Source of the DNA: a virus
Lineage: Duplodnaviria > Heunggongvirae > Uroviricota > Caudoviricetes
DNA: 45,074 nt
Strand: one strand, 5' to 3'
Virus record (IMG/VR): IMGVR_UViG_2908567220_000008
Coordinates: 1-45,074 of that record
The notes below the pieces were generated by a model, which was not told the origin of the DNA, did not search any database, and saw only the letters and a program-made list of their open reading frames with translations. Positions 1 to 26,890 of this stretch are shown one piece after another (position 1 is the first letter of the stretch; every line of letters starts with the position of its first letter). The translations under genes were made by a program, and so were the position numbers.

Positions 1-1260
1 TCATATTCCTATCGCCATGCCATGGGGCATGGATGGGGCAAAGTCCGATAATTTCTGGTTCAACATAGCAATCTGATCGCTGCTGCTGTCGGCCATCCAG
101 GCGCCGTAAACATTGAAAACCATCTGGGCGCTGGCGTGTCCCATCTGGCTGGCAATGAAACTCGGGTTGGCCCCGGCAGACAGCGACCAGCAGGCGTAAG
201 TGTGTCTCGACTGATACGCCTTGCGGTGCCTTAAACCTGACCGTTTAAGCGCCGCATCCCATGAGTCACCAACTGAATCGGCTTTGTACAGGTAACCTAC
301 GCTGCCACTGTTTTTAACCAACTGAGGATTGAACACAAATGTACAGTCGTGAATGACCGTTCGGCCATACTCCCGCAGTTGTACCTCAACCTGATACTGC
401 CTGCCTAACCTGGTCATTTCCGCCTGGTTCCTCAAAGCGTCAATGGCTGGCTTGATCAGGTGAACGACCCTGTCGGTACCGGCTTCGGTTTTTGGTAGAG
501 TGAAATCACCGAGTTTCGTATAATTCCGGCGTATGGTCATCGTTCCAGTTTTCAGATCTATGTCTTCCCATGCGAGGGATACCAGCTCGCCGTGACGTAA
601 TCCTGTGTATACCGCAATTGACCACAGGTTTTTCGTTTGCTGATGCTTGCAGGCATCTATGAAGCGAACGAATTCATCACGTGTGAGCGGATCTGGTTCT
701 ATCCTGGCCCTCTTTAGCGGCTTGATGCCGTTAAACGGGTTTTCACTCACATAGCCATTATCAACAGCAAACTGAAACATACCCGCGATCGTGGTCATGT
801 AGTAGTTTACCGTCACCACACTCAACCCTTTATCCCCCGCCAGCATATCCTTCCTGATATAGAGAAGCTCTTCTCTTGTCACAGACGAAACCAGCTTATT
901 CGCGCCAACCCTCGGCAGCATGCTTCTCACTACCGATTCGTACCTGTTTATGGCATTAGCGCAGATCTCCATCCGTTTAAGCTCAAGCCATTTTTCAGAC
1001 AGATCTTTTACGGTGATATCTTTCGTCCCGATGCCGAAAGTTTTCAGATTTGGCGAGTTGGGGAATTGGGCCGCATAGTCAAAGGTCCCCATGCGGATAG
1101 CGAAACAAACTGACGTTCTCAGCTCCCCGGCCACCTTCCTGTTTTTAGCGGTGTCAGGGACACCGAGGTTTTCCCTGACACGCTTACCTTTAAAAATGAA
1201 CCATATGCGGAGTGACTTTCCGTGGTTCTCAACGCCCGTTGGGTATGATTCTTTACTCAT
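1..1260 (-). CDS. int: Tyrosine-type phage integrase (complete; stop codon at 1-3)
   Basis: 419 aa ORF with ATG at 1260; C-terminal region has the R..H..R..Y catalytic layout of tyrosine recombinases (HTYACWSL, final Y in VYGAW). Sits at the prophage edge next to an excisionase-like gene. Confidence 0.9.
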   Translation of the reverse strand: MSKESYPTGVENHGKSLRIWFIFKGKRVRENLGVPDTAKNRKVAGELRTSVCFAIRMGTFDYAAQFPNSPNLKTFGIGTKDITVKDLSEKWLELKRMEICANAINRYESVVRSMLPRVGANKLVSSVTREELLYIRKDMLAGDKGLSVVTVNYYMTTIAGMFQFAVDNGYVSENPFNGIKPLKRARIEPDPLTRDEFVRFIDACKHQQTKNLWSIAVYTGLRHGELVSLAWEDIDLKTGTMTIRRNYTKLGDFTLPKTEAGTDRVVHLIKPAIDALRNQAEMTRLGRQYQVEVQLREYGRTVIHDCTFVFNPQLVKNSGSVGYLYKADSVGDSWDAALKRSGLRHRKAYQSRHTYACWSLSAGANPSFIASQMGHASAQMVFNVYGAWMADSSSDQIAMLNQKLSDFAPSMPHGMAIGI

Positions 1261-10727: not shown

Positions 10728-11582
10728 ATGGCAAATACTGCCGAGGTAATCAATTTCCCTGTGCCTGTCGTGGCACTACAGGAGCTGCGCGTGGCAGATC
10801 TCGACGATGGGTTTACGCGCATCGCCAATGAGCTCCTTGAAGCTGTCATGCGTGCGGGTCTGTCGCAGCATCAGCTTTTGGTGTTCATGGCTGTCATGCG
10901 CAAAACATACGGCTTCAACAAGAAATCTGACTGGGTCAGTAACGAGCAGCTCTCGGAGCTGACCGGCATTCTCCCGCATAAGTGCTCAGCTGCAAAAAGC
11001 GTCCTGGTTAAGCGGGGGATATTAACTCAAACCGGTCGTGTTATCGGGATTAATAAAACGGTCAGCGAATGGTCATCTTTACCCGTAAAAGGTAAAGAAA
11101 AAAAACCTTACCTGAAAAAGGTAACATTACCCGAATCAGGTAAGAAAAGTTTACCCGAATCAGGTAACGCCTATTACCCGAATCAGGTAAACACAAAAGA
11201 CAAACATACAAAAGACAATAAAGACAATATTAATAACCCCCCTAAATCCCCCCGGGCGGTTTCGTTCGATGCGTTAGCTGTTCAGTTGCCTGACTGGCTT
11301 TCTGCAGAAATCTGGTCGTCATGGGTGGCATATCGTCGCGACCTGAAAAAGCCGATCAAGTCTCAGCAGACGGTCACCCAGGCTATCAACCTGCTGGACC
11401 GCTGCAGACTGAACGGTTACGCGCCCGAAGAAATTATCAACCGCAGCATCGCCAATGGCTGGCAAGGCCTGTTTGAGCCAAATGGTGCCAAGCCTCAACC
11501 AAGTCAACAGGTGCGAGTTGCCGAAAATTTCGCAGGGAAGGATTACGGGCAGACTGAAATCCCATCATGGGCGAGGGACTGA
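10728..11582 (+). CDS. Replication initiator (lambda O-like) with embedded origin
   Basis: 284 aa; N-terminal DNA-binding region; iterons lie inside the coding sequence; followed by a DnaC-like loader. Confidence 0.8.
   Translation: MANTAEVINFPVPVVALQELRVADLDDGFTRIANELLEAVMRAGLSQHQLLVFMAVMRKTYGFNKKSDWVSNEQLSELTGILPHKCSAAKSVLVKRGILTQTGRVIGINKTVSEWSSLPVKGKEKKPYLKKVTLPESGKKSLPESGNAYYPNQVNTKDKHTKDNKDNINNPPKSPRAVSFDALAVQLPDWLSAEIWSSWVAYRRDLKKPIKSQQTVTQAINLLDRCRLNGYAPEEIINRSIANGWQGLFEPNGAKPQPSQQVRVAENFAGKDYGQTEIPSWARD
11088..11240. repeat. Origin iterons plus adjacent A-rich tract (ori-lambda-like)
   Basis: Three exact TTACCCGAATCAGGTAA copies (11127-11143, 11151-11167, 11174-11190) and two degenerate copies upstream, spaced about 20-24 bp, followed by an A-rich tract. 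Confidence 0.65.
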
Positions 11583-19301: not shown

Positions 19302-19901
19302 TTACAGAACCCACCACCTGATCGAATCTGTGGGTATGGTTGCAGCCTCGACATTCTGGATCATACCCAACTCGGTGGCCCTTCCCGGATCAATGATGGT
19401 TGCAGAAGTGATCAAATTAGCCCAGTCAATTTGCTCATCTGGGGCTACAGCGAGAGCCTCGATATTCATCACCTGCACAAATCTTTGCAAGTCGTCATCC
19501 AGACATGCCGCCCATTCCCTAAGCCTGAGGTGATCTGCTTGTGGGGCGGCAAATCCCCAATGTAAAGGATGTAATAAAAATCGCGAGAGAGGATTAGCAA
19601 ACCGCTCAGATCCAGCCATGAAAATAACATTTGCTATAGATTCCACGTTACTAAGGTTATGTGTCTTCACCTTTACAGGAAGAGACTTAAGAAAGTTGTA
19701 TGCGGTAAAACCTGCAACGGTATCTCCACCTTTACTAGAGATGTAAATCCTGATCTCAGAGGCTGGTTGGTTAGGGCTTGATATCGCTTTGAGGCAAACA
19801 TCCATAAGGCTGGATACAGAAGCAACTGTTACATCTGTCATGAAGTGTACGGTATGGATCATTTCAGTTTCCCAGAGATATGCCGCAATTGGCATTTTCA
19901 T
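19302..19901 (-). CDS. Stand-alone Clp-fold serine protease (ClpP-like, SDH-type) moron
   Basis: Alignable by eye to ClpP: IRIYISSKGGDT (ClpP LYINSPGG), FMAGSERF (ClpP AASMGA, Ser), LLHPLHWG (ClpP IHQPLG, His), Asp in DHLRLRE. Start uncertain (ATGs at 19910/19901/19895; the track TTG is at 20018). AT-rich; opposite strand to neighbours. Confidence 0.7.
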   Translation of the reverse strand: MKMPIAAYLWETEMIHTVHFMTDVTVASVSSLMDVCLKAISSPNQPASEIRIYISSKGGDTVAGFTAYNFLKSLPVKVKTHNLSNVESIANVIFMAGSERFANPLSRFLLHPLHWGFAAPQADHLRLREWAACLDDDLQRFVQVMNIEALAVAPDEQIDWANLITSATIIDPGRATELGMIQNVEAATIPTDSIRWWVL

Positions 19902-20011
19902 AATGCACATAAAGTGAAAGGTTTTCTGCGTAAACCCGGATGAAATAATTTCATGAAGTAAGGCATTACAGAGCCACTTCCAGAGGTGGCTCGATAATGT
20001 TGGAGGAAACC

Positions 20012-20650
20012 ATGTCAACGCTTAAGGATTTATCCCGGCAGCTAAAGCAGCTGCAGAAGCAAATCCCTTTCGCCACGGCGCAAGCCATGACATCGGTAGT
20101 AAGGGATATCGCCGCAGCGCAAAAGGTGGCACTGGGGCGAAAACTGGAATCGCCGACGCCGTTCACCGTCAACTCAGTGGGCTCTGCTGGCGCCAGAAAG
20201 AACAACCTCCGCGCAAAAGTCTTTGTGCGCGATGTCGCCGCTGAATATCTCGAACCCTTTGAATTTGGTGGTGAACATAAACTGAACAGCCAGGCGCTGC
20301 TCAATCCAAAGAACATCAAACTGAACAAATACGGCAACATGCCGCGAAATAAGCTGTCGCAGTTGAAAGCGAAGCCGAATGTGTTCGTAGGTGAGGTCAA
20401 TGGTGTTGATGCTGTCTGGCAGAGGCGTAAACCGAAGAAGGCGAAAAAGAAACGAGCCCGGCGCTCAGCGAATGGTACGCGCAGACCAAAGCGGAAACAG
20501 CGTGCTCCTAAGCTGCTGGTGAGGTTTGGTGATGCTCTACCTGTTACGCCTACGCTTGACTACATGAACCGCTCACGGTCAATGGCAGCCGGCTTAATGC
20601 CCGGCGCGCTGAGTAGGGCGATTGAGGAAGCGATTCGAACAGCAAAATGA
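20012..20650 (+). CDS. Hypothetical basic protein (213 aa)
   Basis: Start at ATG 20012 (MSTLKDL...); contains a Lys/Arg-rich stretch KPKKAKKKRARRSANGTRRPKRKQR; lies just upstream of the cos-like repeats. Confidence 0.5.
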   Translation: MSTLKDLSRQLKQLQKQIPFATAQAMTSVVRDIAAAQKVALGRKLESPTPFTVNSVGSAGARKNNLRAKVFVRDVAAEYLEPFEFGGEHKLNSQALLNPKNIKLNKYGNMPRNKLSQLKAKPNVFVGEVNGVDAVWQRRKPKKAKKKRARRSANGTRRPKRKQRAPKLLVRFGDALPVTPTLDYMNRSRSMAAGLMPGALSRAIEEAIRTAK

Positions 20651-20751
20651 CCTGAATACCTACCCCATAGGGTTTGGGTCCTTCCTGAGACTTTTGTAAG
20701 GCACGGGCATTGCGCGCCGCAGTGTTTTCCTAGCTACAAACTTTTATTTTG

Positions 20752-20898
20752 TGTCCCATGTCCCACCCCAAGGGATCGCCAGCCACGCCAGAGCCAGCAC
20801 GGATTATTCCATTTATTCCAGTGGGACATTCGTGTGGGACATTGAAAAAATGTCCCAGGTAAATGTCCCACCCCAAAAATGTCCCAGGTGATGTCCCA
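20752..20898. promoter_or_regulatory. TGTCCCA repeat array, putative terminase small-subunit binding sites (cosB-like)
   Basis: Eight copies of TGTCCCA or its complement TGGGACA within 147 bp (direct at 20752, 20759, 20851, 20864, 20880, 20892; inverted at 20822, 20835); the last overlaps the terS ATG. Confidence 0.5.
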
Positions 20899-21461
20899 TG
20901 ACCACGATGAACCAGAGTCAGTACGCGCAACATTCAGGCGTCGATCGCAAGACTATTGGCCGATGGATCAAGGCTGGTCGGTTTATCGTCATGGATGGCG
21001 ACCTGATTGATGTTGAGGCGAGCGATGCCGCGCTGAAGAAAAACCGTGATGGAAAAGATCCGCGGGCATCAAACGCGAAGAAGAAAAAAGCCCCAGCACC
21101 CCGGAATGATGGCGACGATGAAATTGATGAAACCGTTCGCCAGATAATGTTTACAGAAGGTGCAGTCCTTTCCAGGGAAGAGGCCGCGCGGATCCGTGAA
21201 AATTACATGGCCCTGCAGGCAAAGCTCCAGTATGAAAAAGACAGCGGCCAGACAATTGAATTGGCCATCGCCGAGGAGGTTCTGTTTAACGCCTTTCGCC
21301 AGCAGCGTGATGCCTGGCTGAACTGGCCTTCACGCGTGGCACCGCTGATAGCCGCCGATCTGAATGTGCCGGCGGACAGGATGACAGAGGTGCTGATTGA
21401 ACATGTCCACAAACATATCTCAGTCCTCGGAGAACCAGAGTTTAACCCAGCGGAAGATTGA
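20898..21461 (+). CDS. Terminase small subunit (lambda Nu1-like)
   Basis: 187 aa; N-terminal winged-HTH (NQSQYAQHSGVDRKTIGRWIKAG); directly upstream of and overlapping the large terminase. Confidence 0.8.
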   Translation: MTTMNQSQYAQHSGVDRKTIGRWIKAGRFIVMDGDLIDVEASDAALKKNRDGKDPRASNAKKKKAPAPRNDGDDEIDETVRQIMFTEGAVLSREEAARIRENYMALQAKLQYEKDSGQTIELAIAEEVLFNAFRQQRDAWLNWPSRVAPLIAADLNVPADRMTEVLIEHVHKHISVLGEPEFNPAED

Positions 21462-23529
21462 GCGTCTTCAACTGAGTGTCCGGAAAGGGTGGACACCGCC
21501 GCCGCGGATCAGCGTCCCGCAATGGGCCGATGACTACCGGAAGCTGGCGAAAGAAGCTGGCAGTACCTCCGGGAACTGGGAAACATCAACGGTTGAAATT
21601 GCCCGCGGTCCTATGCTGGCCGCGACGGAATCGGGCGTCCACATTATCACCGTGATGTGCTGTACCCAGTTAATGAAAACCGCGCTGCTGGAAAACCTGT
21701 TTGGTTATTTTGCGCACCTCGACCCATGTCCGATTTTGCTCCTGCAGCCGAAGGAAGAGGCCGCTGAGCAGTTTTCCAAAGAACGCATCAGCCCGCTGGT
21801 TAGGGTAACGCCAGTTCTGCGTAACATCATAGGTGACTCAAAGCAGAAGAGTTCAAAAGAAACCATTCTGTATAAAGCTTTCACCGGCGGATTTCTGGCG
21901 CTGGCCGGCGCCGGTAGTCCAGATAACCTTGCGCGCCGTCCGATCCGTGTTCTGCTGGCAGATGAGGTGGATAAATATCCGATTACCCGTGAGGGCGATC
22001 CCATCGCTCTGGCGGAAGAGCGAACCGCCACATTTGGCCTTAACTGGCTGTCCGTGCGGGCTTGTTCGCCGACGGTCGAAGATGAAAGCCGGATTGCTGA
22101 CAGTTACGAAGATTCAGATCAGCGGCGGGCCTCTGTAGTTTGCCCCCATTGCGGGCACCGACAGTTCCTTGATTTCTTCAAACATGTTCAATGGCCAAAA
22201 GAAGGTGATAAGCACCTGACCAAAGCGGCCATGATCCATTGTGAATGTTGTGGTGCTGGCTGGTCAGAGGGTGAGCGTCTGCGGGCATTACAGACAATCC
22301 GCTGGCATCAGACCAAACCGTTTGAATGTTGTGGTTCCCGCCATTCACCATTAATGGAATACGACCAGAAATGGCATGAAGGAGACGAGGGCAGTGTTGA
22401 TGCCGTCTGGCGCTGGTCAGAGTCGGAACGGCATGCCGTATACCGGGCGATTTGCCCGGACTGCGGGGCCGAGGCGCTGGATAATCACCACGCCGGGTAC
22501 CAGGCGTCAAAACTCTTCAGTCCCTGGCAAAAAGACAAGCCATCGGACATTGCAAAGAAATACCTCGATGCGAAAGGGGATCCGGATAAGGAACAGGCCT
22601 GGTGGAACACCCAGATGGGGTTGCCGCACCGGCCTAACCACGGGAAACAGCTCCCGGTTGATGTCCTGCTGGCGCGCCGTGAAGTCTTCCCGGCCGTCGT
22701 TCCTGATGGCGTGGCATTGTTAACTGCGGGCGTCGATACCCAGGATGACCGATTCGAAATCACGATCACTGGCTGGGGGCGGGACGAGGAATCGTGGTCA
22801 GTTGCGCATGACGTCATTTATGGCGATCTGGAGACTGAGGAACCCTGGAAGCGCCTCGATGCGTACCTGAAACAGATATGGCGACGCGGCGACGGGCGAG
22901 GGCTGAATATTCTGGCTGCATGTATGGACTCCGGCGGTCACCACACGCAAAAGGTTTATGAGTTCTGCAAAGATCGCCTTGGGCGCCGCGTCTGGGCTAT
23001 CAAGGGCGAATCTGCGCAGGGTGGGAAACGCAACCCCGTCTGGCCAACCAAGCGACCGACATCGAAAAGTAAAGCCAGCTTCAGGCCAATTATACTTGGC
23101 GTGAACTCTGCGAAAGATGTTGTCCGTGGTCGTCTGCATCTTGAACCGCCAGCTTTAGGTACTGCCGGTGCGGGCTATATGCACTTCCCGGATGATCGTG
23201 ACCTCGGATATTTCAACCAGCTGCTGGCCGAGCGACTGGTTTATAAAGTGGTGGCCGGTCAGCGATTCAGTGTCTGGGAGCCTATCCCCGGACGGGCGAA
23301 CGAAGCACTCGACTGCCTCGTTTACAGCTATGCCGCGTTGTGTGGGCTGAAACATATGGGATTAAAACTCAATGTTCGGGCCGCTAACCTTCAGGCCGAT
23401 CCCGATAAGTTCCTGCCGGCGCCAGCCGAGCCAGAAGAAAAAATCAATTACGAATTACCGGGTGCCATCGTGGATGAGGCTATGGCTCCTGTTAAGCGTA
23501 AGAACATTTCTAAACTCCTGCCGCAATAA
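21403..23529 (+). CDS. Terminase large subunit (lambda gpA family)
   Basis: About 708 aa; lambda gpA-like throughout by eye, including the Cys cluster CPHCGHRQF and C-terminal EALDCLVYSYAAL (lambda EALDCFVYALAAL). First ATG at 21403; the track TTG is at 21397. Confidence 0.9.
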   Translation: MSTNISQSSENQSLTQRKIERLQLSVRKGWTPPPRISVPQWADDYRKLAKEAGSTSGNWETSTVEIARGPMLAATESGVHIITVMCCTQLMKTALLENLFGYFAHLDPCPILLLQPKEEAAEQFSKERISPLVRVTPVLRNIIGDSKQKSSKETILYKAFTGGFLALAGAGSPDNLARRPIRVLLADEVDKYPITREGDPIALAEERTATFGLNWLSVRACSPTVEDESRIADSYEDSDQRRASVVCPHCGHRQFLDFFKHVQWPKEGDKHLTKAAMIHCECCGAGWSEGERLRALQTIRWHQTKPFECCGSRHSPLMEYDQKWHEGDEGSVDAVWRWSESERHAVYRAICPDCGAEALDNHHAGYQASKLFSPWQKDKPSDIAKKYLDAKGDPDKEQAWWNTQMGLPHRPNHGKQLPVDVLLARREVFPAVVPDGVALLTAGVDTQDDRFEITITGWGRDEESWSVAHDVIYGDLETEEPWKRLDAYLKQIWRRGDGRGLNILAACMDSGGHHTQKVYEFCKDRLGRRVWAIKGESAQGGKRNPVWPTKRPTSKSKASFRPIILGVNSAKDVVRGRLHLEPPALGTAGAGYMHFPDDRDLGYFNQLLAERLVYKVVAGQRFSVWEPIPGRANEALDCLVYSYAALCGLKHMGLKLNVRAANLQADPDKFLPAPAEPEEKINYELPGAIVDEAMAPVKRKNISKLLPQ

Positions 23530-25435: not shown

Positions 25436-26298
25436 ATCTACCTCATCTGGCCCAGCGCCTTTTTAATACACCGCTGGCGCTGCACCCAAGTAAAGCTGAA
25501 GTCATCATGGCATCCGTTATGGACCGGTTTGGCATCAGTAAAATCGAATCCTCTCTTGCCATGGATGATGACTGGTATGGATACGACGATAACCGGGGGC
25601 GGGAATCCCGTAGCGACCCGGGTTATGACAATGTGTTGGGCGTCGCTGTCATCCCGATATGTGGGACCCTGGTGCAGAAGCTGGGTAGCCTGCGCCCATA
25701 CAGTGGCATGACAGGCTATGACGGCATTCGTCAGGCCTTCCTGACTGCGATGGAAGACCCCGATATTACAGGGATCTGCCTGGATATTGATTCGCCAGGA
25801 GGCGAGGTCGCCGGATGTTTCGATCTGGTCGATGTCATTTATGGCGCCCGCGGGAAAAAGCCCATCCATGCCATTCTGACGGAAAGCGCCTATTCCGCCG
25901 CCTATGCGATTGCCAGTGCGGCGGACCGGATTTCTGTTCCCCGAACCGGTGGTGTGGGTTCAGTTGGTGTGATCACTATGCACCTTGACTGGACCCAGCG
26001 GATAAAAGATGACGGCCTCAAAGTCACCATCATCACCTACGGTTCCCGTAAGGCTGAGGGGTCACCGCTGAGAGAGCTGTCAGATGAAGCGCTGGCGGCT
26101 ATTCAGCAGGACATCAACACCATGGGCGAATTGTTTGTGAATACCGTCGCCAGAAATCGGGGGATTAGCGCAAAGGTTATCAAAAGTACTCAGGCTGCCT
26201 GTTTTATGGCTGCTGATGGTGTGGAACTTGGACTGGCTGATGAGGTGTGTCCTCCTGATGCTGCGTTCAGAAACTTACTTGAAAAAACAGGAGCCTGA
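25432..26298 (+). CDS. Prohead protease (S49 / lambda gpC family)
   Basis: 288 aa S49 (SppA-like) peptidase; GTG start at 25432 preceded by ggagg and overlapping the portal stop. Confidence 0.85.
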   Translation: MNLPHLAQRLFNTPLALHPSKAEVIMASVMDRFGISKIESSLAMDDDWYGYDDNRGRESRSDPGYDNVLGVAVIPICGTLVQKLGSLRPYSGMTGYDGIRQAFLTAMEDPDITGICLDIDSPGGEVAGCFDLVDVIYGARGKKPIHAILTESAYSAAYAIASAADRISVPRTGGVGSVGVITMHLDWTQRIKDDGLKVTIITYGSRKAEGSPLRELSDEALAAIQQDINTMGELFVNTVARNRGISAKVIKSTQAACFMAADGVELGLADEVCPPDAAFRNLLEKTGA

Positions 26299-26299
26299 A

Positions 26300-26890
26300 A
26301 TGGCGAAGAAAAAGACTTTTAGTTTTGCTCATCTTATTGGCCGTGGCGCGACTGCTTCCGAAGAGGAAGAGGACAAAAAGGCCAAAAAAGCGAAAGGCCG
26401 TCGCGCGGAAGAGGATGAGCGCGAAGATGATGCCGGGGACGATGAACGCGAAGATGACGCGGAAAACGACGATCGTGATGATGACGCTGAAGATGACGGT
26501 GACGACCCGGATGCGGCTGAAGACGATGACGATTCCGAAGATGACGGCGACGATGACCGCAAAGAAAGCAAAGCGGTGAAAAATGCCCGCGCCGCCGAGC
26601 GTAAACGTTGCGCCCGTATCTTCGGCAGTAAGCACGCTGCGGCGAATCCGTCACTGGCCGCTTCACTCGCATTCAATACCGGGATGAGCTCTGCCGCCGC
26701 TATCGATGTTCTGGCATCCACGGCGCCAGCCTTGCAACCAAAGGCAACGCGCGGGCGCTCTCTCGATCAGCGCATGCAGGAAAGCCATGATGTCCGTCTG
26801 AATCCGGATGGCGGCAAGAAAGAGAACGGTAAATCGGCACTGGTAAACCAGATGACCGGCCTCTACAACTCCATTAAAGGAGAGAAATAA
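26300..26890 (+). CDS. Putative head scaffolding protein with acidic repeats
   Basis: ATG at 26300 (MAKKKTFSF...); central run of ED/DD repeats; positioned between protease and decoration protein (lambda Nu3 slot). Confidence 0.55.
   Translation: MAKKKTFSFAHLIGRGATASEEEEDKKAKKAKGRRAEEDEREDDAGDDEREDDAENDDRDDDAEDDGDDPDAAEDDDDSEDDGDDDRKESKAVKNARAAERKRCARIFGSKHAAANPSLAASLAFNTGMSSAAAIDVLASTAPALQPKATRGRSLDQRMQESHDVRLNPDGGKKENGKSALVNQMTGLYNSIKGEK

Follow-up and report, generated by a model that had tools for sequence, protein, structure and literature searches.

A paired-heptamer repeat array abutting the small terminase gene as the probable cosB of a widespread enterobacterial prophage group

The DNA analyzed here, called the window throughout (the whole stretch of 45,074 bp), is an enterobacterial prophage. 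It carries an integrase at 1-1260, an O/P-type replication module that includes iterons, and a complete complement of ORFs for replication, lysis, head, and tail. Over 1.1 kb around the array described below (20400-21500), the window shares 99.8% identity with a prophage remnant of E. coli HS, and related sequence was found in 60 of 5,426 complete E. coli genomes. A megablast search of the region against cultured phages returned no match. By protein, the nearest cultured relatives are Serratia phage vB_SspM_BZS1 (BZS1) and Citrobacter phage phiNP, whose TerL proteins are 46-49% identical (49% for BZS1) and whose TerS proteins are 30-33% identical to those of the window. In the E. coli HS copy (NC_009800; locus L001, 2131-3251), a truncated integrase pseudogene abuts the truncated ORF upstream of cos, which indicates that the early region has been deleted there. 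The remnant adjoins a tRNA-Ser gene.

The small terminase gene, terS (20898-21461, plus strand), encodes a protein of 187 residues that matches PHROG 57, 'terminase small subunit', with an E-value of 2.6e-34. The same start was called by RefSeq in the E. coli HS copy. The gene overlaps terL (21397-23529, plus strand), whose 710-residue product belongs to the gpA family with its ATPase and endonuclease (PF05876, E = 9e-66; PF20454, E = 3e-81), and a gpW gene and a lambda-family portal gene follow. As in a lambda-type cos, terS thus stands directly upstream of the gene for a gpA-family TerL, the enzyme expected to nick cosN. Residues 1-50 of TerS are predicted to form a winged helix-turn-helix (HTH), with residues 17-26 (RKTIGRWIKA) as the putative recognition helix, and the C-terminal ~65 residues are common to relatives of another specificity class, described below. 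The predicted N-terminal domain appears to match the DNA-binding domain of lambda TerS, at Foldseek E-values that are not significant. Searches with the TerS sequence gave no Pfam family at E ≤ 0.01, Phage_Nu1 included, with weak generic HTH matches at E ≤ 10, and no match in the PDB. In public records, the TerS of such prophages is listed as 'hypothetical protein'.

The lysis genes lie upstream of cos, as do a minus-strand ClpP-like ORF and an ORF of PHROG 1924 that ends at 20650. The ClpP-like ORF (19302-20018, minus strand, TTG start) resembles ClpP and head-maturation proteases; flanked by the lysis genes on one side and cos on the other, it is separate from the cluster of head genes that follows the portal. 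The PHROG 1924 ORF (19997-20650, plus strand) is located directly upstream of cos and far from the tail genes, a placement also found in BZS1 (p72) and phiNP (029). Its annotation as a 'minor tail protein' looks doubtful.

An earlier note on this DNA had described eight copies of a 7-bp core, in both orientations, within 147 bp, with the last copy overlapping the terS ATG. An exact-motif search of the window confirmed this description. Between 20752 and 20898, TGTCCCA occurs six times on the plus strand (20752, 20759, 20851, 20864, 20880, and 20892) and twice on the minus strand (20822 and 20835), and the final A of the copy at 20892-20898 is shared with the ATG at 20898. When bp 1 is set at 20707, the predicted left end discussed below, the copies begin at bp 46 and 53 (plus), 116 and 129 (minus), 145 and 158 (plus), and 174 and 186 (plus), and they form four pairs. 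Pair 1 (20752-20765, plus strand; bp 46-59) consists of two abutting cores, 7 bp apart, with the sequence TGTCCCATGTCCCA. Pair 2 (20822-20841; bp 116-135) is inverted, with its two cores 13 bp apart on the minus strand, whereas pair 3 (20851-20870; bp 145-164) has the same 13-bp spacing on the plus strand. In pair 4 (20880-20898, plus strand; bp 174-192), the cores are 12 bp apart, and an AGGTGA Shine-Dalgarno sequence sits between them. The spacing is therefore 12-13 bp within the three downstream pairs and 29 bp between them. The core extends into an A-rich 5' flank, roughly aaTGTCCCA, and A-tracts stand before several copies.

Outside the array, the 45,074-bp window contains only three copies of TGTCCCA (137, 12407, and 17211), so that 8 of all 11 copies lie in the array. 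No additional copies with one mismatch were found in 20651-21000. Against a background of 5.18 copies per window, obtained from dinucleotide shuffles, the Poisson probability of at least eight copies in 147 bp is 1.6e-19. Eight copies were reached in none of 100 first-order Markov simulations, and the array is the densest cluster among all 7-mers of the window. A different 7-mer cluster, of CGTCATC and CATCTTC, at 26423-26460 within the ORF 26216-26890, probably reflects repeated codons for an acidic stretch of a head protein. Conservation was calculated per column in 60 distinct close relatives of class A (the classes are defined below). It amounts to 96% in the eight cores and 63% in the spacers between them, to 88% in the block of cosQ, cosN, and I2-like spacer, and to about 30% upstream of cosQ.

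The window has a second repeat array at 11081-11190, with five iteron-like units of the form TTACC(C/T)G(N5)GGTAA, three of which are exactly TTACCCGAATCAGGTAA. The five units are contained in the Phage_rep_O gene (10728-11582) and represent a lambda-style origin within the O gene; the next gene encodes an IstB/DnaC-like loader. Because the window has this iteron array of its own, a role of the TGTCCCA array as replication origin was rejected.

The nicking site, which was missing from the earlier note, is probably located at 20707-20718 (plus strand). The 12-mer GCATTGCGCGCC at this position is identical to the 12-nt 5' overhang of BZS1, which was determined with PhageTerm and checked with PCR products sequenced across the cos of the prophage (PMC7556043). 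We therefore place the predicted cosN here, with the top strand probably nicked before 20707 and the bottom strand after 20718. The BZS1 record opens with an annotated 12-nt cosL at positions 1-12, and its joined ends read GGGTCCTTCCCTGCACTTTTGTAAAGCACGG, GCATTGCGCGCC, and GCG in succession; the corresponding sequence of the window is GGGTCCTTCCTGAGACTTTTGTAAGGCACGG, GCATTGCGCGCC, and GCA. The 12-mer has a single occurrence in the window, is invariant in 60 relatives, and ends 33 bp upstream of the first TGTCCCA. The assignment is probable, and it rests on BZS1, whose TerS is only 30% identical to that of the window. Feiss et al. defined 'lambda-like phages' by a 12-base 5' extension similar to GGGCGGCGACCT (PMC4669245). 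By this definition, the prophage falls outside the group, as GCATTGCGCGCC matches the lambda cohesive end at only 5 of 12 positions.

A cosQ-like element, GGGTCCT(TCC), is found at 20676-20685 (plus strand), and its heptamer (20676-20682) begins 31 nt before the predicted top-strand nick. In the lambda sequence, GGGTCCTTTCC starts 30 nt before the right end, the position of cosQ. The lambda sequence has the heptamer at that position, and we take lambda cosQ to be exactly GGGTCCT. The candidate element of the window therefore stands at practically the lambda distance. cosQ is described as a highly conserved 7-bp element (PMC4669245). The cosQ-like block is at least 95% conserved in the 60 class A relatives and is also present in BZS1 and phiNP, and similarity among the mosaic E. 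coli relatives starts at this block. In one locus (L007, E. coli MIN9), an insertion of ~600 bp lies exactly upstream of it and contains a 507-nt minus-strand ORF (1782-2288) recorded as a hypothetical protein. Its position directly upstream of the block marks cosQ as a mosaic boundary.

Between cosN and pair 1 lies a conserved A/T-rich spacer (20719-20751, plus strand), which by position is the equivalent of lambda I2 and is common to all TerS specificity classes. In lambda, I2 separates cosN from cosB, and termination requires it (PMC4669245). The spacer of the window is 67% A+T and contains a weak IHF-like match with two mismatches at bp 31-43. Its first half is G+C-rich; together with the weak IHF match, we counted this against the reading of the array as cosB. 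A scan with the IHF consensus WATCAANNNNTTR gave only two-mismatch matches in the region, whereas lambda I1 has one mismatch in the same scan. One of these weak matches (20805-20817, minus strand; bp 99-111) is placed between pairs 1 and 2, a location like that of I1 in lambda, and is moderately conserved. As an I1-equivalent bending site, this candidate is suggestive only. It overlaps a tandem repeat of TTATTCCA (20804-20811 and 20813-20820; 9-bp period) just upstream of the inverted pair 2. The tandem repeat is moderately conserved in the class A relatives and may be a site for a second factor.

The order and orientation of these elements closely resemble those of lambda. In lambda cosB (R3-I1-R2-R1, bound by gpNu1), R3 occupies bp 50-65 (plus), R2 bp 109-124 (minus), and R1 bp 151-166 (plus), with the Nu1 ATG at bp 191. 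R2 has been reported to run in the opposite orientation to R3 and R1, and the spacing between cosN and cosB to be critical (PMC9026076). In the window, pairs 1, 2, and 3 would be the equivalents of R3, R2, and R1, respectively. The candidate TerS sites likewise lie between cosN and terS, the first of them ~50 bp from the left end, the middle one is inverted and followed by direct sites, and the terS ATG is at bp 192. The GGGTCCT heptamer ~30 nt upstream of the nick, the gpA-type TerL, and a TerS with a predicted N-terminal winged HTH are further similarities. Conversely, lambda has three 16-bp R sequences, while the window has eight copies of a 7-bp core in four pairs, including one extra downstream pair that overlaps the start codon. 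The cohesive end is also different, the candidate IHF site is weak, and TerS falls outside Pfam Phage_Nu1.

The significance of the repeats was further examined in relatives, which were reached through E. coli genomes, tblastn, and an exact scan for an 18-mer of cosN. Scanning public viral and genome contigs for the exact 18-mer ACGGGCATTGCGCGCCGC gave 240 loci. Together with the earlier E. coli and phage loci and the window, 134 loci have a terS homologue just downstream, and these represent 88 distinct cosN-to-ATG sequences. Loci with the 18-mer and no terS or terL nearby, mostly from G+C-rich unrelated taxa, were excluded as chance matches. The terS loci were assigned to classes by the N-terminal helix of TerS. 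Class A (45 loci; helix (D/N)RKT(I/V)xRW) has 3-8 copies of TGTCCCA and no GGTAACA, and class B (36 loci; helix SRKTVTxWKxRGW) has 2-8 copies of GGTAACA and no TGTCCCA. Class C (4 loci; helix SR(R/Q)xxYxWE) has TTCACAC in its SRR variants or TTGACAC in its SRQ variants, and class D (3 loci) has a short leader without repeats. The repeat sequence thus tracks the TerS HTH class in all 88 distinct loci sharing cosN, with no exception.

The TerL lineage does not follow this division. Class A is combined with a TerL at least 75% identical to that of the window in 31 loci and with a BZS1-type TerL, less than 55% identical, in 8, and the corresponding numbers for class B are 7 and 21. All four combinations exist; therefore, the repeat follows the class of the DNA-binding domain and not the TerL lineage. 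Such a match of site to TerS helix, independent of TerL lineage, is what packaging specificity would predict. The point is illustrated by the locus L056, which carries GGTAACA repeats. Its TerL is 99% identical to that of the window, its cosN block is 90% identical, and the last ~65 TerS residues are nearly identical. In contrast, no recognizable DNA similarity remains across 20753-21252, that is, the array and the first ~118 terS codons (20-56% identity per 50-bp bin). The window and L056 differ by a replaced cassette.

The layout of the array is retained when the core changes. Class B occurs in a long form of about 195 bp with 6-8 copies and in a short form of 74-78 bp with 3 copies and the ATG at ~bp 75. 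The long forms keep the >><<>>>> arrangement, with cores at bp 47, 54, 122, 134, 151, 164, 177, and 188, which indicates that all copies have changed in concert while their positions were kept. The last repeat adjoins the ATG in the GGTAACA class as well. In classes A, B, and C, 89 of 90 distinct loci have their first core beginning at bp 46-49. Among the loci compared, the TGTCCCA class did not include a short form. The class B short forms are consistent with unequal crossing-over between repeats. Classes D and E share the same cosN and have short leaders with no obvious repeats, and the array is therefore not obligatory for this terminase family. As the array adjoins the region that encodes the HTH, simple linkage could account for some of the co-variation. 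What nevertheless argues for function is that all copies were rewritten in concert in a fixed layout.

Within class C, a change of one base in the repeat goes with a change in the helix: TTCACAC occurs with SRR(S/A)FYNWE (L141 and L048), and TTGACAC occurs with SRQALY(T/N)WE (L185 and L191). This pair of changes is a candidate for a fine-scale contact between base and residue.

Taken together, we consider it very likely that the array is the cosB of a lambda-type cos, with cosQ at 20676-20682, cosN at 20707-20718, and cosB at 20752-20898. The suggestion of the earlier note that the repeats are cosB-type terminase binding sites is supported by their location between terS and a predicted cosN identical to that of BZS1, by the lambda-like order of elements, and by the co-variation with the TerS HTH. 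Its comparison with the Nu1 sites of lambda also holds, since pair 1 is at the position of R3 and the orientations match those of R3, the inverted R2, and R1. Four points are inferred: that TerS binds the repeats, that the DNA bends, where the nicks fall in this phage, and what each of the pairs does.

We propose that the winged HTH domains of TerS would read the TGTCCCA cores. Pair 1, at bp 46-59, would anchor the terminase at a fixed distance from cosN, and in this register the gpA-type TerL would introduce nicks staggered by 12 bp, leaving the 5' overhangs GCATTGCGCGCC. The inverted pair 2, ~56 bp further on, may be brought to pair 1 by a bend, due either to host IHF or to intrinsic curvature, as has been proposed for R3-I1-R2 in lambda. 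The direct pairs 3 and 4 may stabilize the post-cleavage complex on the left end, as R1 does in lambda, and cosQ would serve termination at the downstream cos.

It is conceivable, though unlikely, that the repeats are operators for another DNA-binding protein, such as a regulator of late genes, or that they act as a roadblock or in the autoregulation of terS expression. The last copies do flank the Shine-Dalgarno sequence and overlap the ATG. Moreover, L056 also differs from the window upstream of cos, and from these two loci alone an unlinked regulator would be conceivable. However, the replaced cassette contains no genes besides the 5' part of terS, and the repeats are kept in class A despite a variable set of upstream genes. 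The correspondence between repeat class and TerS HTH in 88 of 88 loci points to TerS itself, and a first pair locked at bp 46-49 from cosN would be needless for a transcriptional operator. A scan of 20500-21000 found no sigma-70-like promoter or terminator, which is weak negative evidence. An Rfam search of the region found nothing, again weak negative evidence, in this case against an RNA element.

We regard as very unlikely the possibility that the array is a headful pac site, or that the prophage is defective and the site a relic. Many copies of a very short motif can indeed constitute a terminase recognition signal, as in the pac site of phage P1, where clusters of a hexamer flank the cut. 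P1 packages by headful, its motifs are under Dam methylation control, and its terminase is unrelated. For the present phage, the virion ends are a prediction, and the copy in E. coli HS is part of a truncated prophage remnant. Against these readings, TerL belongs to the gpA family, the cohesive ends of the nearest cultured relative are fixed and their mapped 12-nt sequence is present unchanged in the window, and the cosQ-like element stands at the lambda distance. Array and cosN also show visible constraint in 60 distinct relatives, and the set of replication, lysis, head, and tail ORFs in the window is complete.

It is equally improbable that the repeats are mainly structural DNA, through intrinsic curvature or as a site for a host nucleoid protein, and that TerS recognizes something else. 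The regular spacing within and between the downstream pairs and the A-tracts before several copies would fit such a role, but if the element acted by curvature or through a host factor, its core would not change together with the TerS helix of the phage under an unchanged layout. A chance or low-complexity cluster, for which nothing speaks except the short length of the core, is refuted by the statistics given above and by the conservation of the core positions across the 60 relatives.

As cosB, the array joins a type of element that is already well known from lambda, 21, phi80, N15, and Gifsy-1. This new member has a predicted cohesive end of its own, a cosB of paired heptamers, and a TerS family that lacks annotation. 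A literature search with the heptamer and 'terminase', and with the 12-mer, yielded the BZS1 paper as the only relevant one and no description of this cos. The cos region of BZS1 and phiNP has an identical cosN, a near-identical cosQ-like block and I2-like spacer, the same gene order, and a homologous ORF upstream of cos. It differs from that of the window in having three GGTAACA copies in 74 bp. The BZS1 paper gives the ends without mention of a cosB (PMC7556043).

The use of the same cosQ and cosN with different R sites and a different TerS recognition helix is the pattern described by Feiss and co-workers (PMC4669245). As with the specificities of lambda and phage 21, a shared cosQ and cosN are here combined with alternative cores that are tied to the TerS helices. 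In contrast to lambda and 21, the specificities in the present group are deduced from co-variation only, there are at least three or four classes, and one class of DNA-binding domain is joined to two TerL lineages that are less than 55% identical to each other. The long and short forms of the GGTAACA class resemble the complex and simple cosB of Monarch and N15, respectively. In N15, the terS ATG is at bp 89, and the simple cosB has been proposed to arise from a complex one by unequal crossing-over (PMC4669245). The window itself has the long, complex form.

For enterobacterial prophages of a widespread group that lacks annotation, these results provide a concrete cos map, which comprises cosQ, cosN, the I2-like spacer, and the four pairs of repeats. 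They also provide a natural swap series, in which the same cosN occurs with TGTCCCA, GGTAACA, or TTSACAC cores and in long and short forms, and the same TerL occurs with different TerS DNA-binding domains. Possible uses include studies of the evolution of packaging specificity, the prediction of cross-packaging among prophages and satellites, and the annotation of genome ends. The result leaves the current picture of cos packaging unchanged and is in line with what specialists would expect; those who work on packaging may find the comparative series useful.

A more speculative reading, to which we give only limited credence, is that the array and the TerS DNA-binding domain constitute interchangeable specificity cassettes on a constant cosQ-cosN chassis. 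The >><<>>>> layout would then exist in at least two 7-bp codes, with complex and simple forms for one of them. The binding mode of the paired heptamers might be unlike that of the 16-bp R sites of lambda, for example, with two winged HTH domains per site or with the eight sites matching the stoichiometry of TerS. The conserved overlap of the last site with the Shine-Dalgarno sequence and ATG might, in addition, couple assembly of the packaging complex to the shut-off of terS.

The 18-mer scan gave two further observations. Among loci L131-L250, about two-thirds of the genome-contig matches to ACGGGCATTGCGCGCCGC are in G+C-rich genomes, such as those of Nocardia, Gemmatimonadota, and Sphingomonas, and have no terminase gene close by. 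Such chance matches call for caution in exact-pattern scans of very large collections. Five other loci, from Pseudoduganella, Aquitalea, and viral contigs (L020, L052, L088, L149, and L193), have the cosN 18-mer together with a cosQ-like GGGTCCCTCC. In these loci, a different TerS (MVDLQSPMTQ...) begins only ~53 nt from the predicted end, without visible repeats, and TerL shares only ~27% identity with that of the window. Conservation of the predicted cosQ-cosN module reaches far beyond that of the terminase sequence.
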